Shown here in pieces: positions 1,574-42,878 of a stretch of DNA of 64,000 bases. Source of the stretch: a phage; sequence record PZ452594.1. One strand, 5' to 3'. The notes under the pieces are model-generated. The model was given only the letters and a program-made list of their open reading frames with translations, had not been told where the DNA came from and did not search any database. The first letter of the stretch is position 1. The number at the start of each line of letters is the position of its first letter. The translations under genes were made by a program, and so were the position numbers.

Positions 1574-2898
1574 TTGATTTCCTCTAAATCTTTGGCGTAT
1601 TCTGTAACTACATCAGTAGTTTTCCAATATTCGTTTTCTTCTTTTTTAGCTTTAGCTTCTTCAGCAAGTTTCTTCGCTTCATCGGAAGTCATATGAAAAA
1701 TATTCATTCCAACTAGTTTATCAACATAAGAAGAATACATATCGATTTTCGAAAGTTCTTCGGTCAGTTCTTTACGAGTTTTACCCTGTACAACAATTTC
1801 ACCTGAAATTACTTTCTTAATGAAATGTGCCTTGGCAAAGGCTAAACGAAAAGCTGACTCAGTTTCTTTAATTTTGTTATCAATTCGTTTTTGAACATAA
1901 GTTTTACGAACTTCAACAAAGTCTTTAATTAAATCAACTACGTTATCGTAAACTTGTAGTTTTCCTTTCTCATTAATGACGGTAATATTCTGAGAACGAC
2001 GCTCAATCAACCCGAAGTCTTTCATAATTTTTGCATGGCGTTCTTCTTCGTTATCGCTCAAAGAATATTCTTTACGGAATTTAACTTTGAACCCAAAACC
2101 ATGCTCACCACAAGCATCATCCCACGTAATGAAGCCTTTATCTTCAAGTGGGTCTAAGATTTTACTCACATAAGTTTCACGATCATACTTATACGGAATC
2201 TCAGTGATATGCATTTGAGTTCGTGAAGTAAACTTATATGTTCCACGAATTTCATATTGCCCATCAATTTCAACGACTTCACCACGAAATTCTGGGAATT
2301 CTACCTTCGGTTTAGTTACTTTCTTTCCTTGAAGAGCTTGTAATACAGCTTTCTTAACAGAAGAAACACTATGAGGAAGAATGTAAGTTGCATAACCAGT
2401 TGCAATACCGGAAACGCCATTAAGAAGAACAGTAGGAATAATAGGCAAATAGAAAGCAGGCGGAATGTGTTCTTTATCTTGATGTACCGGAGCATATTCA
2501 GTATCTTTATATACGTTATAGAAATTTTTACTTACACGAGCAAAAATATAACGACTTGCTGCTGCTTTTTGGACGGTACGAGAACCAAAGTTTCCTTGAC
2601 CATCTAACAGAGGAAAGTTATTATTCCAAGTGTTAGCCATCAAAGCACCTGCGTCTTGCGCAGAGTTTTCACCATGATGATATCCAAGGTCCGCTACACC
2701 GCCTGCGATAGAAGCGAGTTTGTGAAACTTATCTTTATTTCCTCGTGCCAAATCAAGAGCTCGAGCAATAACAAATCGTTGAACTGGCTTAAATCCATCA
2801 ATCATATTTGGAATGGCACGATTTTCAACCGTGTACATAGCATAAGCCAATGCTTCATTATCAATGATACTTTTTAAATCGCGATTATTCAGTTGCAT
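1570..2898 (-). CDS. 52: DNA topoisomerase II medium subunit gp52 (442 aa)
   Basis: MQLNNRDLKSIIDNEALAYAMYTVENRAIP... recognised as T4 gp52 (GyrA-like cleavage-religation subunit). Confidence 0.93.
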   Translation of the reverse strand: MQLNNRDLKSIIDNEALAYAMYTVENRAIPNMIDGFKPVQRFVIARALDLARGNKDKFHKLASIAGGVADLGYHHGENSAQDAGALMANTWNNNFPLLDGQGNFGSRTVQKAAASRYIFARVSKNFYNVYKDTEYAPVHQDKEHIPPAFYLPIIPTVLLNGVSGIATGYATYILPHSVSSVKKAVLQALQGKKVTKPKVEFPEFRGEVVEIDGQYEIRGTYKFTSRTQMHITEIPYKYDRETYVSKILDPLEDKGFITWDDACGEHGFGFKVKFRKEYSLSDNEEERHAKIMKDFGLIERRSQNITVINEKGKLQVYDNVVDLIKDFVEVRKTYVQKRIDNKIKETESAFRLAFAKAHFIKKVISGEIVVQGKTRKELTEELSKIDMYSSYVDKLVGMNIFHMTSDEAKKLAEEAKAKKEENEYWKTTDVVTEYAKDLEEIK

Positions 2899-2902
2899 AA
2901 AT

Positions 2903-3043
2903 TTACCATACTAGTGAATGTAGTGCCATAATAACATCAGAAATGAAAAGCACGACTTGAATTAATCCGAACATTACTCCATAATATAGTGCTATTAATA
3001 AAATAGCAAGGGCTAATGAATAGCCCAAGATTTTCTTAATCAT
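2903..3043 (-). CDS. small hydrophobic peptide (46 aa)
   Basis: Hand-translated MIKKILGYSLALAILLIALYYGVMFGLIQVVLFISDVIMALHSLVW; immediately upstream of gene 52. Confidence 0.4.
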   Translation of the reverse strand: MIKKILGYSLALAILLIALYYGVMFGLIQVVLFISDVIMALHSLVW

Positions 3044-3191
3044 TAGATAACAACACAAATGTTAAATATGCACACATACCCTGAGCTAAAGCTTGCGAAA
3101 ACACACTGCTGGCATCAATACAGATAGTTAAAACACATGCTACTATCCAACAAATAAATGAAATAACTCCTAATAATTTTGCAATATTCAT
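3036..3191 (-). CDS. small hydrophobic peptide (51 aa), ac-like by position and size
   Basis: Hand-translated MNIAKLLGVISFICWIVACVLTICIDASSVFSQALAQGMCAYLTFVLLSND; T4 has the 51-codon ac gene in this neighbourhood (from memory). Confidence 0.4.
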   Translation of the reverse strand: MNIAKLLGVISFICWIVACVLTICIDASSVFSQALAQGMCAYLTFVLLSND

Positions 3192-4128: not shown

Positions 4129-4326
4129 TCATTTTACACCATTCCAAATTGTTTCAATCACGGATTTTAAACCATTTTGATGAATATCAATTCCGACAAC
4201 TGCCATCAAATAGATTCCAACTACAACTGAACCCAAGGCGAAAATCAGCATGAAAATGAATAAAGCCGGAAAAATATTATCGAAAAACCATTCAATAAAT
4301 GTAAAAGCACTGCGTTTACGCTTCAT
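4129..4326 (-). CDS. small membrane protein (~65 aa)
   Basis: ORF track 4129-4347; start moved to ATG with SD GAGGAAAAT; hydrophobic core IFPALFIFMLIFALGSVVVGIYLMAVV. Confidence 0.5.
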   Translation of the reverse strand: MKRKRSAFTFIEWFFDNIFPALFIFMLIFALGSVVVGIYLMAVVGIDIHQNGLKSVIETIWNGVK

Positions 4327-4333
4327 ATTTTCC

Positions 4334-4447
4334 TCACATAAATCCAAAGTAAACGTTTAATACATCAATCATTAAAACGATTGGGAATATACTCAAAACT
4401 ATTAGTATTATAACTACATTCCATATAGCTTTAACAATCTTTTTCAT
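4334..4447 (-). CDS. small membrane peptide (37 aa)
   Basis: MKKIVKAIWNVVIILIVLSIFPIVLMIDVLNVYFGFM preceded by SD GGAGGAACAG; C-terminal part of track ORF 4334-4582. Confidence 0.45.
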   Translation of the reverse strand: MKKIVKAIWNVVIILIVLSIFPIVLMIDVLNVYFGFM

Positions 4448-4475
4448 TTTCTGTTCCTCCGTAGTTGATAGGGTA

Positions 4476-4505
4476 ATAGTACTACGGAGGAACAGTCTTG
4501 TAAAC
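4476..4505 (-). promoter_or_regulatory. T4-type early promoter flanked by a 14-bp inverted repeat
   Basis: GTTTAC (rc 4500-4505), 18-nt spacer, -10 TACTAT (rc 4476-4481); inverted repeat ctgttcctccgtag / ctacggaggaacag spans the -10 and the downstream SD. Confidence 0.45.
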
Positions 4506-4754
4506 AACTTTTTTAAAAATATTCGTAATAAATGTGAATACCAATCACTACTGCCGAAACCTGTGCAACCCACCACGCACAAGCAATAAGTACAGAATTC
4601 AAAATTTTCATAATAACCTCATCACAAAAGTAAATGTTAAACAAATTACTGGAATACTAATTAACCAAACAAAACACCACCATAATGAACTCATAGTTCA
4701 ATCTCAGCGATTTTCATTTTATTCTCCAAATCTGTATCAGTAGTTGATAGTTGT

Positions 4755-4784
4755 ATAGTACCACGGTCCTTGTGGTATGTAAAC
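4755..4784 (-). promoter_or_regulatory. T4-type early promoter
   Basis: GTTTAC (rc 4779-4784), 18-nt spacer, TACTAT (rc 4755-4760); directly downstream of denB stop. Confidence 0.4.
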
Positions 4785-4799
4785 CATTTTGTGAAATTT

Positions 4800-5357
4800 T
4801 TAAATGGAAAGATACCATCCGTTGTAGTTGCTTTTTCTTACAACCTTACGAAGGTCTTCTCTGTCACCGATGAACTTCGGAGTGTACTGGATGACACCTG
4901 GATGAATTTCTTTAGTGTTGAATATAATTATACAGTCAGCGACTTGATGATTCAGAATGGGCCCTAGATTTATTCCAGAACCGTATGGATACTCTCCGCT
5001 GCATCCGGTTGTTACCGAAATCCATCGTGAGTCAGTTTGATGTGTTTTGACTTCTACACGAAGCCCACAGTATTTTGGATGCGCCAATACATCCCATGCA
5101 TATGTATATGGGTCATTAACATCCTCTTGGCCTTTGTTAACATACCCGCTTAGCCAATCTGCTACAAAAAATTCTGCGTACACAGCGATACGACATCTTT
5201 CAATAACTTCTGCTTTATCCTGGTTCGGGTTTTGTTTTAAAGAGTATCTTGCTGTATCAGCAATTTTGGCCTTCATTTCACTAGTCAAGTCACTGTTCGA
5301 TAGGGTAAATGTCGGAATCTGAAATAGTCTCTGCAAACCCGGATTCGTTTTCTGCAT
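4800..5357 (-). CDS. denB: endonuclease IV DenB (185 aa)
   Basis: 185-aa product, position between rIIB and ndd, sequence recognised as T4 DenB. Confidence 0.85.
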   Translation of the reverse strand: MQKTNPGLQRLFQIPTFTLSNSDLTSEMKAKIADTARYSLKQNPNQDKAEVIERCRIAVYAEFFVADWLSGYVNKGQEDVNDPYTYAWDVLAHPKYCGLRVEVKTHQTDSRWISVTTGCSGEYPYGSGINLGPILNHQVADCIIIFNTKEIHPGVIQYTPKFIGDREDLRKVVRKSNYNGWYLSI

Positions 5358-22868: not shown

Positions 22869-23893
22869 ATCTTAGCATATTTAGATAGCCGCATTTTAGC
22901 CATCAACCCCTGGGCAATATTATTTTTCATATATTCCATAATTTGTTCAGGGGTTGCACCTTCCTTTCTAATCATATCATTAACATCTTTTGATTTCCAG
23001 GGAGATTTATCCCAAAACATAACCCTTTCTCCTGCATCAACTAATTTAGTCATTCGCTTAATAGTGTCAGGATGACGAGGTTCATTATCTAAAACCCACA
23101 CTCGTCTATCTTTAAATGGAACAACTTCTAGGTCTAATTGACCACCCGTAATAGCTATACCATTTTCAATAAAAAGTGAATCTATAGGTCCTTCTAGAAC
23201 ATATACATCACCATCTTTAACTCGTTCGACTCCATAGATTTTTGTTGCTTCAGGATAAGCTTTGATGGTGATATATTTTTGGGGAGCATCTTTCTTTAAT
23301 GCACGTCCTTGAAAAGACTCAGCTTTTCCATTAGCATTATAAATTGGAATAACAAGACGAGGCTCAGGTATTTCCTTTTTATATGTTCCCGGTGCTATGC
23401 TATTAACTAATTTAGGCCATTCAGTTGTAAACCAAAGATATTTCCATTTATCCTTTGGAATACAACGAGCTTTTATATATTTTATAATTGCATGGTCTTC
23501 CGCCAGTTTATCTAATCTAACACATGACGGAAGAGATTTAATTATTTTCTTCTCAGGTTGTTTAGGAAGTTCTTTAGGTTTTTCTACTGGACGACTTTTA
23601 CCTTTTTCTTTTCTTATTTCAAAGATATACTCACGATATAAATCGGGTTCAAACTCCTTTAAATATATTCCGATTGGCGCATGATAGTTGCAGTTATAAC
23701 AATGAATATTTCCTTCATTATTATCACCATAATACCATCCACGGGCTTTATTTTGATCGGTTTTTGAATCTCCACAAACAGGACATCTAAACCGTAATTT
23801 AAAAGTTGAACTATTATTTACTTGCGCGAATTTAGGTAAATGAGCCAATGCACGGTATGCAAACTCATTATCAATCCAAGGTATTGATGACAT
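22865..23893 (-). CDS. 61: DNA primase gp61 (342 aa)
   Basis: Zinc-binding CPVCGDSK...CYNC; MSSIPWIDNEFAYRALAHLPKF... recognised as T4 gp61; 342 aa. Confidence 0.92.
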   Translation of the reverse strand: MSSIPWIDNEFAYRALAHLPKFAQVNNSSTFKLRFRCPVCGDSKTDQNKARGWYYGDNNEGNIHCYNCNYHAPIGIYLKEFEPDLYREYIFEIRKEKGKSRPVEKPKELPKQPEKKIIKSLPSCVRLDKLAEDHAIIKYIKARCIPKDKWKYLWFTTEWPKLVNSIAPGTYKKEIPEPRLVIPIYNANGKAESFQGRALKKDAPQKYITIKAYPEATKIYGVERVKDGDVYVLEGPIDSLFIENGIAITGGQLDLEVVPFKDRRVWVLDNEPRHPDTIKRMTKLVDAGERVMFWDKSPWKSKDVNDMIRKEGATPEQIMEYMKNNIAQGLMAKMRLSKYAKI

Positions 23894-23894
23894 T

Positions 23895-24060
23895 TTTACT
23901 CTTCTTTTTCTTTAGATTCCTCTTTTTTCTTTTTAGGAATCTGTTCAGGGCCTTTATTTACTACAGCACCTGATGTTGTTCCAGTAGAGATATTTTCAGG
24001 ATTACCACCTGAATCTCCAGCAACCATATCTTCTTTGATAAATTCTTTATATGTTTTCAT
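23895..24060 (-). CDS. small hydrophilic protein (~54 aa)
   Basis: Hand-translated MKTYKEFIKEDMVAGDSGGNPENISTGTTSGAVVNKGPEQIPKKKKEESKEKEE; below track cutoff. Confidence 0.35.
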
Positions 24061-24061
24061 A

Positions 24062-24418
24062 TTAACCTCTATTCATAAAAGCATTAAAAATTTGGTCATC
24101 AATCGATGGAATAGCAACCTTTTCGGCATCATTTAGCAAATCATTAATTTCATCAGATAGCATAACGCATGTACCTTTATTTCCTGTAATTGTTACTGCG
24201 CAATTACGAACGTTTTCTTTATCAAATTTTAGGTTAATATTTTCGTAGTGAAAATCCTTTAATGCCGAATATATTTTTAAAATGAAATTGTCTTTTACTA
24301 CAATAAACCCAACCTCACTATTAAAACGTGGTTCATGGAAACTGTAATAAACCTTTTCATCTATAAAATCGTATGAAATTTTTTCCATTTTTAAATATGA
24401 AAATTCAGAACTATACAT
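24062..24418 (-). CDS. hypothetical protein (118 aa)
   Basis: ORF track; within the 61-41 interval (T4 61.1-61.4 region). Confidence 0.5.
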   Translation of the reverse strand: MYSSEFSYLKMEKISYDFIDEKVYYSFHEPRFNSEVGFIVVKDNFILKIYSALKDFHYENINLKFDKENVRNCAVTITGNKGTCVMLSDEINDLLNDAEKVAIPSIDDQIFNAFMNRG

Positions 24419-24430
24419 ACTAACCTCTAA

Positions 24431-24724
24431 TTACTCACCTACCACTTCAGCGATGATATTTTTATTATTAAAGTTTTTATCACAATACAGAACGTAATTG
24501 TATTGCATTACACCACCAGACTTAAGCTGTTTTTGCACTTCAGCTTTCATTTCAGGGCGATCGCGCTCAACGATATTCATAATATCTGCTTCAATTTGAG
24601 TTTCAACCTCAGTCTGATCAGCAGTCATAGACCACTCACACAAATCTTTATCATAACCTGCCATAGCAGGCTGAGCAGCACAAGAAGCTAAAGCAAAAAT
24701 TGTAGCAAAGATAAATTTTTTCAT
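24431..24724 (-). CDS. sp: periplasmic/lipoprotein Spackle-like superinfection-exclusion protein (97 aa)
   Basis: Signal peptide MKKFIFATIFALASCAAQPAMAG; 97 aa; position in the 61-41 interval as for T4 sp (61.3), recalled from memory. Confidence 0.6.
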   Translation of the reverse strand: MKKFIFATIFALASCAAQPAMAGYDKDLCEWSMTADQTEVETQIEADIMNIVERDRPEMKAEVQKQLKSGGVMQYNYVLYCDKNFNNKNIIAEVVGE

Positions 24725-26721: not shown

Positions 26722-27066
26722 TTAAAAGAATTTAAATTTTTTCTTTGACCTTTTATTAAATGCATCTTGTAGTTGCATTGTAATACATTTTTCTACATGA
26801 GGAGCTAACTCAGCTTTTCTTTCTTGGTCAAGAACAGCAAAGTCCATTACAACCTTTCCATTAACCCAATCTAATTTTGTCACATACACAATGTGTGTAG
26901 AACCATCTTCTAGTTTAATGACAATCTCCTGGATAACATTTTCCATGGCAGATTTAATTATCTTAAGAGATTCATTAAAAAGACGTTCTTTTCTTTCTTC
27001 TTCCCCCTCCGAAGAGGGGGATTCATCGATAATTTCTAGATCTAAATCTAAATCATCTTTATTCAT
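26722..27066 (-). CDS. 40: gp40-like protein (~114 aa)
   Basis: Position between uvsX and 41; start moved to ATG (MNKDDLDLDLEII...); track ORF begins at GTG. Confidence 0.6.
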   Translation of the reverse strand: MNKDDLDLDLEIIDESPSSEGEEERKERLFNESLKIIKSAMENVIQEIVIKLEDGSTHIVYVTKLDWVNGKVVMDFAVLDQERKAELAPHVEKCITMQLQDAFNKRSKKKFKFF

Positions 27067-28240
27067 TAAATTCTTCCATATCACTTAGCTGATCTAGGTC
27101 AGTTTCTAAATCAGCTGCTGATTTACTTTTACTTTCTGAGGATTTAAATTTTTCAACTTTTGAGTTAATTAATTCATCAACTTCCGCTTCAACAATTTCA
27201 TTACTATCAATAGCACCTAACTGATAAGCACGCTTAATAGCATCACGGAATGGTTGATGCTTAAATAAAGGACCCCAGAATGTAGTGCAGTTGGTATCTT
27301 TTGCACGCCAAGATTTTTCTTCGCGAATCATCTCGCCGGTTTCTTCATCAAGAAATTCACGAGCATACCAACCATTCTTAGGTTTTACTACAAATCCTAA
27401 TTCTAGAGCCATATCTAACAATCCAGAATAAGGATCGATACCGCCGTCAAATTTAACATCAATAAAGAATTTACTTTTTTCTTTAACTGTACGAGATTTT
27501 TCTACATTTAGAACAAATTGATACCCCTGAAGATCAGAACCATCTTTAATCTGACGCTTACCGATAATGAATACAGTATCAGCCGAATACATTACACCTG
27601 TACCGCCTGTCATTACGGTTTTGCTAAACATTTCAATTGTTTCAATTGTATGGTTAACCGCAACACATGGAATATTTTTAATGCTAAAATAAGGAGTAAC
27701 AATACGGAATAATGACTTCAGTGATTTAGCACGAGTCATATCTGCCACAGATTTTTCATTCAAGGCATCTTCCGTTTCTTTCTTAGAAGCCATATTACCG
27801 ATTGAGTCGATGAATACAATAACTTTTTCACCGCGCTCAATAGCTTCAAGCTGATTCACCATATCAATTTTCAGCTGTTCAACTGACTGAATTGGCGTAT
27901 GAATTACTCGTTCCGGGTCAACTCCCATGGATCGCAAATAAGCTGGAGTAATACCAAATTCGCTATCATAGAATAGACAAACCGCGTCAGGATATTTGTT
28001 CAAATACGCCGCAACCATAGTCAAAGACATATTTGATTTAAAGTGTTTAGAAGGCCCTGCGAAAATAGTTAAACCAGACTGCATACCGCCATCAATCGCA
28101 CCAGAAATAGCGATATTAAGCATTGGGATTTTTGTACGGATTACATCCTTTTCATTAAAGAATTTAGATGTAGTCAGTTCAGCAGTCATTTTAGAAGTGG
28201 AAGCTTTAATCAAACGGGATTTTAAATCTGCAATAGACAT
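27059..28240 (-). CDS. uvsX: UvsX recombinase (393 aa)
   Basis: RecA-family P-loop GPSKHFKS; MSIADLKSRLIKASTSKMTAELTTSKFFNEK... recognised as UvsX; acidic C-terminus. Confidence 0.93.
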   Translation of the reverse strand: MSIADLKSRLIKASTSKMTAELTTSKFFNEKDVIRTKIPMLNIAISGAIDGGMQSGLTIFAGPSKHFKSNMSLTMVAAYLNKYPDAVCLFYDSEFGITPAYLRSMGVDPERVIHTPIQSVEQLKIDMVNQLEAIERGEKVIVFIDSIGNMASKKETEDALNEKSVADMTRAKSLKSLFRIVTPYFSIKNIPCVAVNHTIETIEMFSKTVMTGGTGVMYSADTVFIIGKRQIKDGSDLQGYQFVLNVEKSRTVKEKSKFFIDVKFDGGIDPYSGLLDMALELGFVVKPKNGWYAREFLDEETGEMIREEKSWRAKDTNCTTFWGPLFKHQPFRDAIKRAYQLGAIDSNEIVEAEVDELINSKVEKFKSSESKSKSAADLETDLDQLSDMEEFNE

Positions 28241-28317
28241 TCATTTTTTCCATAGGCATCATTATATTTTCCTCACTGGTTAAAGATAGAGTAATTATAA
28301 CACAATAAATTTAGGCA

Positions 28318-29160
28318 TTAATCAACTGCTATTGGATGAATAGCATTAAACTTATGAAATGCTTCTGATTTTTCTTTACGCGAAACACACATGCGAAGAA
28401 CCTTTAATGGCTCATCTTCTTCACCCAACGATTTTCGTTTTTCAATATTAGAAGTTTTCCAACGAGCTTGCTCTGGAAACTCTCTGTTGATTTGCTCAAG
28501 CGCTCTATTATGTTTAGAATTACTACGAATTGAACTGCACCCGCCAGGAGCTTGTGCTTTTCCAGATACAACCAGATATTTGAACAAGGCCAAATGCGGA
28601 TAACCTTGATTAATTAAATTGAGAAATGCATACATATCTTCGCACAAATCAATTTTTCCATACCCAATTTGTTCTGTCGTAAGTTTTCCAAGGTCATACC
28701 ATGTATTCGTGAATCCATATGAATTTTCACGATAATTACCCCAAGATGAAGTAATTTTAAAAATTGGTAGACGAGCATGGCCATGATAATACCCACAATC
28801 CATGGCATCCTCAACATATTGAATCAATTCATAGAACTGTTCACGGGTTAATTGATTGACTTTATCTACACAGCGACGATCATCTCTTTTTCGCATTGAG
28901 CTCATACGAATCGTAGTATCATCGTCAATCATCCAGATTCGTTGACCTGCATACATATCAGTAATTGCTTTACGAGTACCGGCAATTCCATTTACGTCAT
29001 CAGGAATAGTTATAATTTTAGCTCTAGACCCATAGGCATCATAATAAGCTTTTTCTTCATGTTCACGCACTACAATATGGGGTTCATAATCAGTCGGAAA
29101 CATATCAAGGGCAGAAACTGCCCCGACACGCTGATAACTTGGAATTACGAATTGAATCAT
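28318..29160 (-). CDS. GT-A fold (DxD) glycosyltransferase in the beta-gt slot (~280 aa)
   Basis: N-terminal VIPSYQR and DxD motif WMIDDDTT; lies between uvsX and 42; not T4 beta-gt (351 aa); start moved to ATG, ATGA overlap with gene 42 stop. Confidence 0.6.
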   Translation of the reverse strand: MIQFVIPSYQRVGAVSALDMFPTDYEPHIVVREHEEKAYYDAYGSRAKIITIPDDVNGIAGTRKAITDMYAGQRIWMIDDDTTIRMSSMRKRDDRRCVDKVNQLTREQFYELIQYVEDAMDCGYYHGHARLPIFKITSSWGNYRENSYGFTNTWYDLGKLTTEQIGYGKIDLCEDMYAFLNLINQGYPHLALFKYLVVSGKAQAPGGCSSIRSNSKHNRALEQINREFPEQARWKTSNIEKRKSLGEEDEPLKVLRMCVSRKEKSEAFHKFNAIHPIAVD

Positions 29161-29897
29161 TTCCACTCACCTTTATAGTCTTTTTTCACAATATGAGTTT
29201 CGCCAGTATTCCACCAATGATCAACCAAGTAAAAATGACGAGAATATACATGAAGACTTCCAACATTCCATATAATAGAACCTGCTTTATACTGACGAGT
29301 TGAATCGCCGGCATTCAAATCAGATACTAATTTATCTAATACGTATTTTTGCCATGCATAATCATTACGGAATCCGAAGACCACGTCATTTGAGCGCATG
29401 TTAACAACCGCATTGACTTTCTTATCACGAATCAGGTACTGTACTGTATTAGTACACATGAAATCTGACATACCATCTTTATTGTAGTCAAATTGCATGG
29501 ATGGACGAGTATAAATCATGATACCACGTCGAGAATCAGGATTTTGACCAAGTTCAGCTAAACACATATCATATTGAGCATAGTTATCTTCTGACCAGAT
29601 AGCCCAACCATAATTCGAGTTAATTTCACCTTTAGAAGATGCTACTTGTTGCCAAATCTTCGGTGTTTCACCCGGAATATCTTTAACGAACAAGCTCTTA
29701 GATTTATACCATTCAAGTTCACGCTGAATGTATTCATCATTAAGAGCGCCAAAAATAAACGGTTCATCTGCTATAAATGATGCGCCAATAATTTCAATAG
29801 TTTTAACGCCAGTTTTATCAACTACGAAATCTTTTTCCTTTAATGCAAGACCCAAATGAAGACGGATTTCTTCAACTGTCATAGAGTCACTAATCAT
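29157..29897 (-). CDS. 42: dCMP hydroxymethylase gp42 (246 aa)
   Basis: MISDSMTVEEIRLHLGLALKEKDFVVDKTG... recognised as T4 gp42; 246 aa. Confidence 0.93.
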   Translation of the reverse strand: MISDSMTVEEIRLHLGLALKEKDFVVDKTGVKTIEIIGASFIADEPFIFGALNDEYIQRELEWYKSKSLFVKDIPGETPKIWQQVASSKGEINSNYGWAIWSEDNYAQYDMCLAELGQNPDSRRGIMIYTRPSMQFDYNKDGMSDFMCTNTVQYLIRDKKVNAVVNMRSNDVVFGFRNDYAWQKYVLDKLVSDLNAGDSTRQYKAGSIIWNVGSLHVYSRHFYLVDHWWNTGETHIVKKDYKGEWK

Positions 29898-30050
29898 TTA
29901 AACCTCAATTGATACATTCATATTTAACTTGTAACAGTAATAAACCCCAACCTATAATAAGTGGCGGAATCATAAGAGGAACTGTTACGCTATAGTATAT
30001 ACTTATTATAACCATCAAGATTAAAAGCAACACTGCTATAATTTTGCTTT

Positions 30051-30302
30051 TCATTCTTTCTCTCTGATGATAATTACCTGATTTGGATGTGCAGACTTTT
30101 TGGTTTCACCCGCAATTGACCAAATGAATGTAATAAACCAACCAATAATTGACCAATTAAACAGTAAAGACGTGAAAAAGATTCCTACTGTCGATTTTGA
30201 CCCACGCATCAAGGCGATGAACCATGGAAGCATGTATATAATAATAGCCAACACACCTGAAACTAAAACCATAAAAATTGAACCTGCTACTAAAGTTTCC
30301 AT
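30051..30302 (-). CDS. imm: Imm superinfection immunity membrane protein (83 aa)
   Basis: Two hydrophobic helices (METLVAGSIFMVLVSGVLAIIIYMLPWFIALM...); 83 aa; position between 43 and 42. Confidence 0.85.
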   Translation of the reverse strand: METLVAGSIFMVLVSGVLAIIIYMLPWFIALMRGSKSTVGIFFTSLLFNWSIIGWFITFIWSIAGETKKSAHPNQVIIIREKE

Positions 30303-30309
30303 GTTTTCC

Positions 30310-30690
30310 TCACTTAGTCAAATTTTTTACGCATGAATTATAAGAATTCACTACATACTCCATCGGAGCATTTTTACCGGTACGCCATTGGTAATTATTA
30401 GCCCAATTTGCCCAAAGCTCGGCGCAGTAGTTTTCAATTTTTTCTTCGCGTGTAATTACATCCGAATTACGATATGCTTGAGCAGATTCATCTGGACGAA
30501 TAGCTTCGTCAAAATTCGCCTGCATTTGTTCTACTGTTTGCTTTGGAGCTTCTTTATAACACTTGACATTAGGATTATAAAATTTGCTTGAACAGTTTAC
30601 AATTTTTCCTACATCAGACTGATTTACTACCGGTTCTTGAGCTACACAACCAGTAAGACCTAATGCAATAACCAAAATAGCGATTTTCAT
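30310..30690 (-). CDS. predicted lipoprotein (126 aa), imm.1-like position
   Basis: Signal peptide with lipobox LTGC (MKIAILVIALGLTGCVAQ). Confidence 0.55.
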   Translation of the reverse strand: MKIAILVIALGLTGCVAQEPVVNQSDVGKIVNCSSKFYNPNVKCYKEAPKQTVEQMQANFDEAIRPDESAQAYRNSDVITREEKIENYCAELWANWANNYQWRTGKNAPMEYVVNSYNSCVKNLTK

Positions 30691-36098: not shown

Positions 36099-36785
36099 TT
36101 AAAAATCGTGGGTAGAATCAGCTTCAAGAGCTACTACATAATTCGCGTGTTCACCTTCAAATTTAGCAGCACCTTGTTTACCTTTTGCCCAGAGCAGAAG
36201 TTTATAATTTCCTGGTTGCATTTTCATATTTGCCATATTGATAATGAAATTAAATGTATTTTCACCATCATAATCACCAAGAGTCAAAGAATATTTAACA
36301 CGGGTCAAAGCAGAATCTTCCACTTTATTAAAACCGTTAATTACGATTTTACCTTCTTTTACTGTGATAGCAATTGTATCAATCTGCAGACCGCGAGATA
36401 CACGCAACAGCTGCTGAAGGTCTTCAGCTTTAATTTCAGTAACAACAGATGCTACCGGGAATGGAATTGGTTTATTAGGAGCAACTACTGTACTCGGATC
36501 GGCTGCTGGCCAAAAAATTGTTGAACGAGCATCAGCAATTTTAATATTTCCATCTTCTGACTGGGAAATTTCTGCATCATCATTAACTAGGGACAGAATA
36601 CCGAGAAAACCGTTCAAATCGTAAATCGCTACATCAAAATCAATAGTGTCAGAAATATTTGCTTCTGCATAAGTTGTACCATTAACTGCGCGAGTCATAA
36701 TAAATTGACCGGATTTAAGCATAATACCAGAGTTAATAGTAGCGAAATTTTTAAGCAGAGCAGTAGTATCTTTAGACAGTTTCAT
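36099..36785 (-). CDS. 45: sliding clamp gp45 (228 aa)
   Basis: MKLSKDTTALLKNFATINSGIMLKSGQFIMTRAVNGTTYAEANIS... recognised as T4 gp45. Confidence 0.93.
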   Translation of the reverse strand: MKLSKDTTALLKNFATINSGIMLKSGQFIMTRAVNGTTYAEANISDTIDFDVAIYDLNGFLGILSLVNDDAEISQSEDGNIKIADARSTIFWPAADPSTVVAPNKPIPFPVASVVTEIKAEDLQQLLRVSRGLQIDTIAITVKEGKIVINGFNKVEDSALTRVKYSLTLGDYDGENTFNFIINMANMKMQPGNYKLLLWAKGKQGAAKFEGEHANYVVALEADSTHDF

Positions 36786-36840
36786 GTAATTTCCTTCAAT
36801 TCAAATGAGATTTAATTTTATAACTAATTTAATAAAGCAA

Positions 36841-37230
36841 TTAACGATTAAAATCAGCCGCAATTGTTTCCGCAACAATTTGAGCAGCAACAATTAGACG
36901 TTCATCTGCATTACCGCAATAATCATCTTCAAGGCGTTCACCGCATGAAGTCATAATAAATTTAGCACCGGCGTTTAGAGATTCTGTAGTATGTTTGCGC
37001 ATTAGTTCAATCCATTTATTACTTACTTCACGATCGATAGCTTCATAATACGCATGACGAGCAGGTGCAGATTTAATTTTATTCTGAATAACTTCCATTG
37101 CGTTATCAGAAAGAGACAAAACCCATGCTCGACGAATTTTATTTTGGTTTTGTGGATTTGATTCAGAACGCACGTGTTTTGGCTGAATATCTTTTACGTC
37201 AACAGTATAATTCACAGTAATTTTAGTCAT
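36841..37230 (-). CDS. rpbA: RNA polymerase-binding protein RpbA (129 aa)
   Basis: Position between 46 and 45; 129 aa as for T4 RpbA. Confidence 0.75.
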
Positions 37231-37239
37231 AATACACCT

Positions 37240-37428
37240 TTAGTCATAATAATCAGTAACAGTCCAAGCTTCATTTCTATTGGACATTATTTTTGTATAT
37301 TCTGCTTTAAATGCATTCCTAAGCATAGATTCAGTAACTATATGCTCTTCATTAGAAAAATTATTTCTCAGAATATATCGTTTTATTTCAGGAATAGTTA
37401 ATAGATGCTGTCCAGTTGAATATTCCAT
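37240..37428 (-). CDS. hypothetical protein (62 aa), 45.2-like
   Basis: ORF track. Confidence 0.55.
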   Translation of the reverse strand: MEYSTGQHLLTIPEIKRYILRNNFSNEEHIVTESMLRNAFKAEYTKIMSNRNEAWTVTDYYD

Positions 37429-37483
37429 GTTTTTCCTCCATAGAGATTATACTCTAATAAATTAAAGCATAATCTCTTATAAA

Positions 37484-39166
37484 TTAAACCATTACAGTAA
37501 ATCGACCAACTTTCTTCATTTGAAGATGCTGACCATATTCTTGCGGGTCATGGTCTTTATGTGAAATTATAAAAACATTAGTGTTTTTCATTGAATTTAT
37601 AATATTAGCTACACCTTTAATACCTTCGGCATCAAATGACCCATCAAACACTTCATCGAGTATTAATGTACTAATACTAACACCAGATACAATAGAAGCA
37701 ATATCACGCCAAGTAAATAAAAGAGCAATATCAATTCGTGCCTTTTCACCTTCACTAAATGAAGCATAACTAAAATCTTCACGACCACGGGATTTAATTG
37801 TCTCATTAAATTCTTCATCTAATGTAAACACATAATCCGCTTCCATTATTTTAAGATAATGGTTAATCTGCTTATTAAATAATGGAATGTACTTTTTAAT
37901 AATAGCACCTTTAATACCAGAATCTTTGAGCATATCAGTCAAAATTCCTCGGTGGTATTTTTCCATTACTAAATTAGTTTTTGTCTTAACAATTTTATCA
38001 AGTTCTTCTTGAAGCAGTGCTATTTCATCGGCATGGTCAATAAACTCAGATGATGCTTTTTCTATAGCCGCTTTAACCTTTTTAGCTTTATCTACCGTCG
38101 TGATTAGAGATTGCTTTTTATTGCGAATATCATTTGCCAACGACTGTTGGGTTTTAATATTATCTCGGTATTCATCAACAAGAACTTTTAAATTATCACG
38201 ATGTGTTGAAAGCTGTTCAAATGAATGTGTGCATTCAGAAACTTTATCTTTAATTTTAGAAACAACTTTATCACCGGAACTTAATTGTGACAAACAGGTT
38301 GGGCATAATCCACCTTCGTGATACATATTAATGACTTTATTATACGAGTCAATTTTTGATTTAATTAAAACTGCTTCTTGACCGATTTTATTAAATGCAT
38401 CAGTCGGATCTTCGTCTAAAACAATATTAACTAATCTTTCATTAGCTTCTTCTATTTCCGATTTTAGCGTTCTAGCTTCTTTTGCCAAATCATCATACAT
38501 ATTCTGCAAACGAGTAAGATTGTCACCCGTTAATTTTTTCTGGCGTTCAACGTTATCATTATATATTTTAATTTGTTGGATAATACTATCTTTTTTAACA
38601 TCAAGCACTTGGTTTTGTGAATTTAATTCACGTATTAGTGCTTTATTAAGCTTATCCATTTCAGCTAATGTTCCTACCTCGAGCAGGTCTTCCACAAGCT
38701 TTCTTCGCGCAGGGGTCGACAAACCCATGAAAGGGGTATACCCTGCTGTACCAAGGACAACAATCTGCTTGAAACTGGCATATGACATTCCGATAAGCTG
38801 TTCAAATTCTGCTTGGAAATCTTTACTGCTGGCAGATTCATTAAGACGTGTACCGTTAACGGTGATTTCGAAAACGTTTGGTTTTTGTCCTCTTTTGATA
38901 TAGTACTTTTTCTCATCATATTCCATCCACAGTTCAACTAAAAGTTCTTTCTTATTTGTGCTGTTTATTAATTGACCTTTCTTTACATCACGAAATGGCT
39001 TACCAAAAAGCCCAAATGTGATGGCTTCTAACATAGTAGACTTACCACCGCCATTTCGTCCAGTAATAAGAGTTTTTTGAACCTTATCTAATTGAATGTC
39101 AACTCCATTTTGACCAACTGACATTATATTTTTATATTTTACTCTATTAAGTTTAAATGATTTCAT
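37484..39166 (-). CDS. 46: recombination endonuclease subunit gp46 (Rad50/SbcC-like, 560 aa)
   Basis: Walker A GRNGGGKST, central coiled coil with CPTC zinc hook, C-terminal signature/Walker B; recognised as T4 gp46. Confidence 0.93.
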   Translation of the reverse strand: MKSFKLNRVKYKNIMSVGQNGVDIQLDKVQKTLITGRNGGGKSTMLEAITFGLFGKPFRDVKKGQLINSTNKKELLVELWMEYDEKKYYIKRGQKPNVFEITVNGTRLNESASSKDFQAEFEQLIGMSYASFKQIVVLGTAGYTPFMGLSTPARRKLVEDLLEVGTLAEMDKLNKALIRELNSQNQVLDVKKDSIIQQIKIYNDNVERQKKLTGDNLTRLQNMYDDLAKEARTLKSEIEEANERLVNIVLDEDPTDAFNKIGQEAVLIKSKIDSYNKVINMYHEGGLCPTCLSQLSSGDKVVSKIKDKVSECTHSFEQLSTHRDNLKVLVDEYRDNIKTQQSLANDIRNKKQSLITTVDKAKKVKAAIEKASSEFIDHADEIALLQEELDKIVKTKTNLVMEKYHRGILTDMLKDSGIKGAIIKKYIPLFNKQINHYLKIMEADYVFTLDEEFNETIKSRGREDFSYASFSEGEKARIDIALLFTWRDIASIVSGVSISTLILDEVFDGSFDAEGIKGVANIINSMKNTNVFIISHKDHDPQEYGQHLQMKKVGRFTVMV

Positions 39167-39181
39167 TTTGTATCCAATTGT

Positions 39182-40036
39182 TCACAATGAAGAAAATTCT
39201 TTAACTAAAGCCTGTAATGAAGCCTCTATTGGATATCCATTCTTAACTAACATTTTCCTAAACATTACATGTTTAGGACGATTATATGATATCCACAATT
39301 CATACAATTTATCTTTATTATCCCAATGATAGCCTTTTCGTCGAGATGCTATATGAGCTTTTCTAATCTCCGGATTTTTCCAACTAGCAGCTACTGAATT
39401 TGATATAGCTATTTTATATTCAGGTTTTGATAAAGCAGCACGAACAGCCTTTTGGTGTTTAATTTTATTTTCTTCGTTATTAAACCATTCCCTTGAAGCC
39501 ATTGAAATTTTTTGTTTTGTTTTAAAATTATTTAATCTTTCTTTATTATCTTTCCTATTTTTTGCTACTGAAAAATATTTTAATGCCCTTTCTCTAGCAG
39601 CATTTCTATTTTGCGGATTTGAATAATACTGTTGAAGCCTTTTTGATATTGTGTCACTTACATCTTGTTTTATAAAACTATATTCAGCAGCTATTAAATC
39701 AACTTCGGCTAAAGATAAATTTTTATATGTTTTTCCTGACATCATTCTATTTAAAGCATTTAACATTTTTCCATTTTTACCTTTTGCTAATAAGAAGTGT
39801 GCTTTAAAATGATTAAAATGACTTAAATTAACTAAATTCCATGTAGATTTTAAATATTCAGGAAATATTGATTTAGGAAGCACGTGGTGTGCTTCCGTTT
39901 TACCTGGAGTTTTAACAGTTGAATTCACAGAAATAAAATTAATGTAAGACTTGGCGTCTTCTTCACTCAACGCTAATTTTTCAACTAATTCCTTTATTAA
40001 AAATTCATCATTAATGTCAAGTTTAAAATTCTTCAC
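39182..40036 (-). CDS. HNH-family homing endonuclease-like protein (284 aa)
   Basis: HNH motif EAHHVLPKS...NLVNLSHFNHFKAH; basic C-terminal region; GTG start; lies between 46 and 47. Confidence 0.6.
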   Translation of the reverse strand: MKNFKLDINDEFLIKELVEKLALSEEDAKSYINFISVNSTVKTPGKTEAHHVLPKSIFPEYLKSTWNLVNLSHFNHFKAHFLLAKGKNGKMLNALNRMMSGKTYKNLSLAEVDLIAAEYSFIKQDVSDTISKRLQQYYSNPQNRNAARERALKYFSVAKNRKDNKERLNNFKTKQKISMASREWFNNEENKIKHQKAVRAALSKPEYKIAISNSVAASWKNPEIRKAHIASRRKGYHWDNKDKLYELWISYNRPKHVMFRKMLVKNGYPIEASLQALVKEFSSL

Positions 40037-41675: not shown

Positions 41676-42878
41676 TTATTTTGTAATAATGTCAAACTGT
41701 TCTTTAAAGCAGAAGCTTGAATCTTGATGCTGATACAAAAATTCATACGCTTTTTCTCGCTCACGGTCATAAAGAGCTCGGTCAGATGACAGTTCTTTAA
41801 TACGCTCGAATGTTGATTCCATATCATTTTCATCAAACCAAATGATACCGCTATCATGCGAGGTCAAAGGAGTATTATCAACACGGAATTTTAAATTTTC
41901 GCCAGTAGATTTCCAAAATACCGGAATTGTTCCACATGCACCAAGCTCGAGATGAGTATATTCTAAAGAACGTTGTAGATATTTTTTATCCAACTTACTC
42001 AACTGATAACCAAATCCGGATTTACTCATGCGTTCAAGCATTTCGCTATTTACATAACGGTCAAGAATTTGCGTTGGCAAATTAGGAGCAATTTTAATTT
42101 GGTCTACTTGATGAAGACGATAATATTCATATGGAATTCCCTTTTCTTTAATAGGAATGAACGCTGGAGAACGTTCCAGACCTTCCATAATAGTACTTAG
42201 TCCTGCAGGTTTAAGATGTTTTTCGTGAAAATCAAACATCTGATAAAAACCTTTCCATGTAGTCGTACGACCAATCCAACGGTTAACATTCATGTTAATT
42301 TCAGAAACATCTTTCCAGTATGTTGATCGAACCTTCGCAATATCCATAGGAGGCTGAAAGTTGTATACGGTCGGTGCTTCTTCAATATCATCAAACAGAG
42401 AAACTGTTTCTGGATACCATTCTTTCATCAGAACTTTATTAAAATCGCCATTATCAGAATGACTAAAAATAACATCAGCTCGACGAACAGTTTCTTCTAA
42501 TCCCAAATTTCGGCGCAAAGAAAGAGAAGAATGGTCATGTTGATAAACTACAACACGAACCGAAGGTTTAATGTTATCAATAATTTTTTTATAGTTATTA
42601 ATAGTGTCTTCTTCAACCGAAGTAGCAGGAACTGAATTGATAATTAGAATATCACAATCATTTACCAGCTTAAGTGTTTTATCGTATTCTTTTGCCAATA
42701 AAACCGGAATTGAAAATGATTTATAATCATGCGCGCAATTACGAGTAAATGATTTATCTTTAGCATAAACCAAAGTTACTTCATGACCATTTTTAATAAA
42801 CCAATCACGTTGCTCAAGAGAAAATTTAGTTACACCGCAACCTTCAAGACCTCGAGCCATAAAAATACATACTTTCAT
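41676..42878 (-). CDS. agt: DNA alpha-glucosyltransferase (400 aa)
   Basis: MKVCIFMARGLEGCGVTKFSLEQRDWFIKNGHEVTLVYAKDKSF... recognised as T4 alpha-gt; 400 aa. Confidence 0.92.
   Translation of the reverse strand: MKVCIFMARGLEGCGVTKFSLEQRDWFIKNGHEVTLVYAKDKSFTRNCAHDYKSFSIPVLLAKEYDKTLKLVNDCDILIINSVPATSVEEDTINNYKKIIDNIKPSVRVVVYQHDHSSLSLRRNLGLEETVRRADVIFSHSDNGDFNKVLMKEWYPETVSLFDDIEEAPTVYNFQPPMDIAKVRSTYWKDVSEINMNVNRWIGRTTTWKGFYQMFDFHEKHLKPAGLSTIMEGLERSPAFIPIKEKGIPYEYYRLHQVDQIKIAPNLPTQILDRYVNSEMLERMSKSGFGYQLSKLDKKYLQRSLEYTHLELGACGTIPVFWKSTGENLKFRVDNTPLTSHDSGIIWFDENDMESTFERIKELSSDRALYDREREKAYEFLYQHQDSSFCFKEQFDIITK

Follow-up and report, generated by a model that had tools for sequence, protein, structure and literature searches.

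The T4 beta-gt slot of a phage genome very probably carries the T2/T6 second DNA glucosyltransferase gene

Background

The second DNA glucosyltransferase of the phages T2 and T6, beta-glucosyl-HMC-alpha-glucosyltransferase (ba-gt, ggt, g-gt or TAGT), is an enzyme that we take to be EC 2.4.1.28, and the original cloning of the T2 and T6 genes is reportedly the work of Winkler and Rueger in 1993. In a T-even phage, this gene decides between mono- and diglucosylated hydroxymethylcytosine. According to the literature, this state alters the sensitivity to glucose-dependent defences, including GmrSD-type restriction enzymes such as BrxU, the DNA glycosylase Brig1, and BapA, which is unable to strip gentiobiosyl groups.

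The chemistry described for T2 and T6 comprises gp42, alpha-gt and then a second enzyme that leads to beta-1,6 gentiobiosyl-5hmC (PMC13216743, PMC13390438, PMC13160076). A preprint reports about 75 % alpha-glucosyl-5hmC in the DNA of T6(delta g-gt), matching the modified fraction of the wild type, and the glucose-removing enzyme BapA frees glucose from this DNA but not from wild-type T6 DNA (PMC13160076). In an LC-MS study of twelve new coliphages, Tequatrovirus phages with alpha-GT and TAGT contained 5hmdC, alpha-glucosyl-mdC and alpha-gentiobiosyl-mdC, and no beta-glucosyl form. The DNA of one of the phages studied, Solly, consisted of about one third 5hmdC and about two thirds alpha-gentiobiosyl-mdC with background levels of alpha-glucosyl-mdC, again without a beta-glucosyl form. 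The second glucose was assigned to the TAGT gene, which is syntenic with T4 beta-gt, and gentiobiose in T6 and Solly was identified against standards (PMC13390438). The extent of diglucosylation ranges from about 5 % in T2 over about 40 % in Geo, EL and BGP to about 67-72 % in Solly and T6 (PMC13390438). Since the genes of these phages are very similar, factors beyond the presence of the gene matter.

Among the RefSeq genomes, phages encoding such glucosyltransferases have either alpha-GT or beta-GT, accompanied by TAGT or not, except for T4 and Bacillus phage G, and the T4 pair of alpha-GT and beta-GT was found in only 6 of 753 genomes of a larger set (PMC13216743). That the gene is syntenic with T4 beta-gt and its product has a GT-A fold was explicitly described in two papers from 2026 (PMC13390438, PMC13216743), the latter of which placed an AF3 model of T6 TAGT in the GT-A class as a sister group to GT2.

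Gene and genomic neighbourhood

The window, i.e. the whole stretch of phage DNA analysed here, is 64 kb long. Its features are collected in Table 1. In the list of open reading frames, ggt appears as a GTG-start ORF of 282 AA (28318..29166, minus strand). The ATG at 29160 lies two codons inside this ORF and gives a protein that begins with MIQFVIPSYQR. The TGA stop codon of gene 42 is part of an ATGA that overlaps this ATG, reading AAAGGTGAGTGGAAATGATTCAATTC on the minus strand, and the corresponding ATG is the annotated start of ggt in T2, Solly and Geo. The GTG at 29166 was therefore rejected as a start codon. The start of ggt is intact and translationally coupled with gene 42.

Table 1. Coordinates of the genes and protein motifs, and conservation of single residues among the aligned family representatives
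Feature	Coordinates	Strand	Description	Conservation
ggt / ba-gt / TAGT (beta-glucosyl-HMC-alpha-glucosyltransferase)	28318..29160	-	280 aa plus stop	
gene 42, dCMP hydroxymethylase	29157..29897	-	Pfam PF00303, thymidylate-synthase family	
uvsX	27059..28240	-	downstream flank of ggt; Pfam T4_UVSX_C and RecA	
alpha-gt, DNA alpha-glucosyltransferase	41676..42878	-	400 aa; Pfam PF11440, E 3.9e-237	
VIPSYQR, residues 5-11	29128..29148	-	end of strand beta1 and loop, includes R11	
WMIDDDTT, residues 76-83				
D79-D80-D81, DxD motif	28918..28926	-	right after beta4 (model strand 74-77)	
E174-D175 ('CED'), candidate catalytic base	28636..28641	-	N-terminus of model helix 174-184	
R11				138/138
R63				134/143
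D79				141/143
D80				143/143
D81				135/143
E174				119/143
D175				143/143
G206				141/143
G207				143/143
R212				137/143

The sequence-only reading of this DNA had claimed a protein of about 280 AA between uvsX and gene 42 in the slot of T4 beta-gt, with alpha-gt retained. All three points held: the ORF has this length, both flanking genes are supported by Pfam, and alpha-gt is present. In T4, the interval between uvsX and gene 42 is filled by segA, a GIY-YIG homing endonuclease gene, and the 351-AA beta-gt. In the window, only 77 nt (28241-28317) separate ggt from uvsX and segA is missing there. A tblastn search with T4 beta-gt against the whole 64-kb window found no homolog, the best match having an E-value of 1.5 and lying away from the ggt locus. 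Likewise, the ggt protein did not match PF09198, the family of T4 beta-gt, and a Pfam scan up to an E-value of 1 returned TAGT alone. PADLOC defence models gave no match.

A scan of positions 27900-30400 for promoters and terminators resulted in site counts that were not above those of shuffled sequence. A terminator-like hairpin on the minus strand at 29108-29124, GGGGCAGTTTCTGCCCT with a T-rich tail behind it, falls within codons 13-18 of ggt. With two terminator-like sites in the scanned region compared to 1.2 expected from the shuffles, this hairpin is probably due to chance. The spacer at 28241-28317, which reads TAATGCCTAAATTTATTGTGTTATAAT on the minus strand, resembles by eye a MotA-box plus -10 middle promoter for uvsX. 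Elsewhere in the window, just downstream of gene 46, an ORF of 284 AA on the minus strand (39182-40036) is homing-endonuclease-like. It matches PHROG 655 'homing endonuclease' with an E-value of 8e-45 and also PHROG 12434 'HNH endonuclease', and has neither a Pfam nor a PADLOC match. T6 has an ORF of equal length (855 nt, T6ORF054) at the matching position.

Identity and distribution

Profile searches assign the protein to a described family. PHROG 842 'beta-glucosyl-HMC-alpha-glucosyltransferase' was matched with an E-value of 2.2e-89 over residues 2-277 of the 282-AA GTG-start ORF. The Pfam family PF20691 (TET-associated glycosyltransferase, TAGT) was matched with 38.9 bits against a gathering threshold of 27.5, and this alignment, from 5-209 of the protein to 2-205 of the 205 profile positions, covers the whole domain. 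Homologs of ggt carry a precomputed match to the same Pfam family.

The region of 4 kb around ggt shares 97-98 % identity with numerous Tequatrovirus genomes, among them T2 and RB27. In T2, RB27 and others, the gene is annotated as b-gt or ggt with the product name beta-glucosyl-HMC-alpha-glucosyltransferase. In total, homologs occur in 687 phage records, with at least 95 % protein identity in 472, and at the nucleotide level 475 phage records match with at least 90 % identity. This distribution shows that the ORF is not a product of chance. Approximately 200 T4-like phages of Klebsiella, Enterobacter and Salmonella have a homolog with a protein identity of about 65 %. The order uvsX-ggt-gene 42 is common to the window, T2, T6, Geo and Solly, and gene 42 is annotated as gp42 in T2, T4 and T6.

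The closest protein is that of Solly (OY720021, SOLLY_044), which is 100 % identical without any difference, and the alpha-gt of Solly (SOLLY_064) differs only by V198I. At the nucleotide level, the ggt genes of Solly and the window are about 98 % identical, so that Solly is a different phage. The T2 protein (BBC14657.1) is identical at 278 of 280 positions, with R11H and P251S in T2, where the window has R11 and P251, and three residues differ in alpha-gt. For T6, 276-277 of 280 positions are identical (e.g. YP_010067197.1), and the 3-4 differences comprise Y40N, D55G and R106H in T6 plus one lesion that is specific to each T6 record, while alpha-gt differs at 34 residues. Overall, the protein identity of ggt to T6 and T2 is 98.6-99.3 %.

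Judged by these alignments, the ORF at 28318-29160 is the T2/T6 gene itself and not merely a relative of the T2/T6 enzyme. Its product is very probably the second DNA glucosyltransferase of the T-even phages, which beta-1,6-glucosylates alpha-glucosyl-5hmC to alpha-gentiobiosyl-5hmC. Earlier work has already described this gene along with its position, fold class and product. Moreover, most Tequatrovirus phages have the combination of alpha-gt and TAGT, which is common among T4-like coliphages, and it is T4 that is the exception, the window being ordinary in this respect. The terms glucosyltransferase, glucosyl transferase and gentiobios- are not mentioned in the BASEL collection paper.

Fold and conserved residues

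A sequence search of the PDB with ggt found no solved relative. The best matches, with E-values of 1.6-2, were to a pyridoxamine-phosphate-oxidase-like protein and were dismissed as chance. A crystal structure or residue-level mutagenesis of a TAGT was not found either. An AlphaFold2 model was built from an alignment of 10 sequences and reached a mean pLDDT of 69.7 and a pTM of 0.72. Residues 1-80, the N-terminal beta-alpha-beta half, are well defined with a pLDDT of 85-95, including the strand at 3-7 in the VIPSYQR region with about 88, while the segments 126-151 and 203-211 are poorly defined. The predicted fold is a single Rossmann-like alpha/beta/alpha domain that resembles solved GT-A structures and matches GT2 enzymes. 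The fold matches were cellulose synthase BcsA (9fmv, 10.0), RmlT (8bz4, 9.2), AvpGT (9jma, 8.9), GlfT2 (4fix, 8.9) and TarP (6h1j, 8.7).

An exhaustive scan with HMMER over 1.84 billion cluster representatives gave 336 relatives at an E-value of at most 0.001, and conservation was counted in an alignment of the 143 relatives of roughly full length. The ggt of the window keeps every residue that is conserved in at least 93 % of these 143 representatives. By analogy with characterized enzymes of this fold, the VIPSYQR loop would be the N-terminal motif with which GT-A enzymes bind the nucleotide, and the three consecutive aspartates would bind the metal and the UDP diphosphate. D175 is the likely catalytic base, comparable to the Asp of the (T)ED motif in inverting GT2 enzymes.

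Predicted DNA modification and alternative explanations

From the motifs VIPSYQR and WMIDDDTT, both of which are present, the sequence-only reading had proposed a GT-A sugar transferase, and it had predicted a glycosylation pattern other than that of T4, possibly with a second sugar on alpha-glucosyl-HMC as in T2 and T6, or else another sugar. The structure prediction agrees with the GT-A assignment, with the DDD motif following the fourth strand, and the comparison with the T2 and T6 enzymes, from which the protein differs by two and three to four amino acids, supports the T2/T6-like function. The alternative of another sugar found no support, given that the identical and near-identical enzymes of Solly and T6 yield gentiobiose (PMC13390438).

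In the proposed pathway, gp42 would produce 5-hydroxymethyl-dCMP, which would be incorporated in place of C, and alpha-gt would then attach alpha-glucose to most of the 5hmC in the duplex and thereby provide the acceptor for ggt. Using UDP-alpha-glucose in an inverting reaction, ggt would add a beta-1,6-linked glucose to the first one, which would result in alpha-gentiobiosyl-5hmC. The UDP-glucose may be held by the beta1 loop with R11 and, via a divalent metal, by D79-D81, with D175 acting as the base. An enzyme that forms a beta bond from UDP-alpha-glucose must be an inverting one, in agreement with the GT2-like GT-A fold. Both metal dependence and inverting stereochemistry are presumed for ggt, given the beta linkage of gentiobiose and the UDP-alpha-glucose donor described in the literature. 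Since ggt is identical to that of Solly and alpha-gt differs by a single substitution, the DNA of the window phage is predicted, by extrapolation from Solly, to be T6-like, with gentiobiosyl-5hmC at about two thirds and bare 5hmC at about one third, together with little monoglucosyl-5hmC, and to lack beta-glucosyl-5hmC.

Other explanations of the locus have to be considered. Standing in the position of beta-gt, ggt could be a primary 5hmC glycosyltransferase that replaces the T4 enzyme and acts on the 5hmC left bare by alpha-gt, and an inverting GT-A enzyme would indeed form a beta linkage. In addition, a TAGT homolog is present without alpha-GT or beta-GT in 288 of 753 genomes, and some members may act on the unglycosylated base (PMC13216743). 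However, such a role is very unlikely for the protein of the window, because in Solly, which has the identical protein, about one third of the 5hmC is unglucosylated and no beta-glucosyl-5hmC was detected (PMC13390438), and because the DNA of the T6 deletion phage is alpha-monoglucosylated to the same extent of about 75 % to which wild-type DNA is modified (PMC13160076). That ggt transfers a sugar other than glucose and forms a disaccharide other than gentiobiose is extremely improbable. The donor sugar is not specified by the fold or the motifs, and arabinose is used by the related T4-like Mosigvirus phages (PMC13390438), but gentiobiose was identified in both T6 and Solly, whose enzymes are nearly or fully identical to that of the window. 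Furthermore, an unsystematic look through the ORF lists revealed near ggt no sugar-nucleotide biosynthesis genes of the kind that make up the arabinose cluster in Mosigvirus.

It is also unlikely, though somewhat less so, that ggt is present but weak or inactive and that the DNA is mostly monoglucosylated as in T2. Apparently lesioned alleles do occur in sequenced stocks, namely R11H in T2, the TAG at codon 10 in T6 MH550421 and the reduction of DDD to DD in T6 NC_054907, and the extent of diglucosylation varies widely among carriers of the gene (PMC13390438). Against this, the ggt of the window has none of these lesions and all family-invariant residues, the translational coupling of its start to gene 42 is preserved, and its allele is that of Solly, for which about two thirds gentiobiosyl modification was measured (PMC13390438). 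The assignment as the second glucosyltransferase of the T2/T6 type is therefore preferred.

Alleles in T2, T6 and Geo

The comparison also draws attention to unusual alleles of the laboratory phages. H11 is found in seven T2 records and in SV76, and the exact N-terminus of 50 AA bearing it occurs in these 8 of the 687 phage records and in no others. The R11 codon of the window is located at 29128-29130, and ggt of T2 LC348380 spans 2319-3161 in the numbering of the sequence compared. Across both transferases, T2 and Solly differ at four positions, R11H and P251S in ggt and E327D and A368T in alpha-gt. Since R11 is invariant across the family, the site of P251S is not conserved and the alpha-gt of T2 is only two residues away from that of Solly, R11H is a good candidate for the cause of the low diglucosylation of T2 of about 5 % compared to about 67 % in Solly. 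No statement of this explanation was found in the cited papers. A broader proposal, which we put forward tentatively and consider possible rather than probable, is that the allele of the window represents the fully active wild type and that the contrast between T2 (about 5 %) and T6 (about 72 %) reflects a hypomorphic R11H in the T2 laboratory lineage instead of two natural 'types'.

The two deposited T6 genomes disagree within ggt. In MH550421 (ggt at 4138-4980 in the numbering of the sequence compared), codon 10 is changed from CAG to TAG and the CDS is annotated from Met20 with 261 AA. In AP018814/NC_054907 (ggt at 301-1140, likewise numbered), one Asp of the DDD motif is lost in frame, which leaves WMIDDTT. 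The protein of the latter record, YP_010067197.1, served as the T6 TAGT reference in PMC13216743. These lesions could be mutations of the respective stocks or sequencing errors. The window has Y40, D55 and R106 at the positions where T6 differs, and neither the TAG codon nor the Asp deletion.

In Geo (OZ034685), ggt is located at 23868-24710 and alpha-gt at 36320-37522. Its ggt differs from that of the window by seven substitutions, I50V, M89I, R95K, C97R, V101I, A202S and Q203H, and its alpha-gt is a T6-type allele with 34 differences from that of the window. The DNA of Geo was measured at approximately 1:2:2 for 5hmC and its mono- and diglucosylated forms. Either ggt or alpha-gt could be the source of this intermediate pattern.

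Comparison with described systems

The locus corresponds to the ba-gt of T2 and T6, with a protein of 280 AA, the position between uvsX and gene 42, the ATGA overlap and the partnership with alpha-gt. The relation to T4 is different. T4 beta-gt (PF09198) occupies the genomic slot in which the window has ggt, but shows no sequence similarity to it. T4 beta-gt is an early/middle gene, and its UDP-glucose-dependent product links glucose to modified phage DNA through a beta-glucosidic bond; ggt would be alike in these properties. The acceptors would differ, as ggt is predicted to use the glucose of alpha-glucosyl-5hmC and T4 beta-gt uses the hydroxymethyl group of 5hmC. The folds differ as well, being GT-A for ggt and GT-B for T4 beta-gt (PMC13216743).

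Within the PF20691 TAGT family, R11, DDD, (E)D175, GG206-207 and R212 are common to the ggt of the window and the 143 diverse representatives. Nevertheless, the T-even proteins form a divergent branch of this family, which is reflected in the modest profile score of 38.9 bits. They also differ in the enzyme that supplies the modified base: in the window, a thymidylate-synthase-like hydroxymethylase modifies dCMP, in place of a TET/JBP dioxygenase that acts on DNA.
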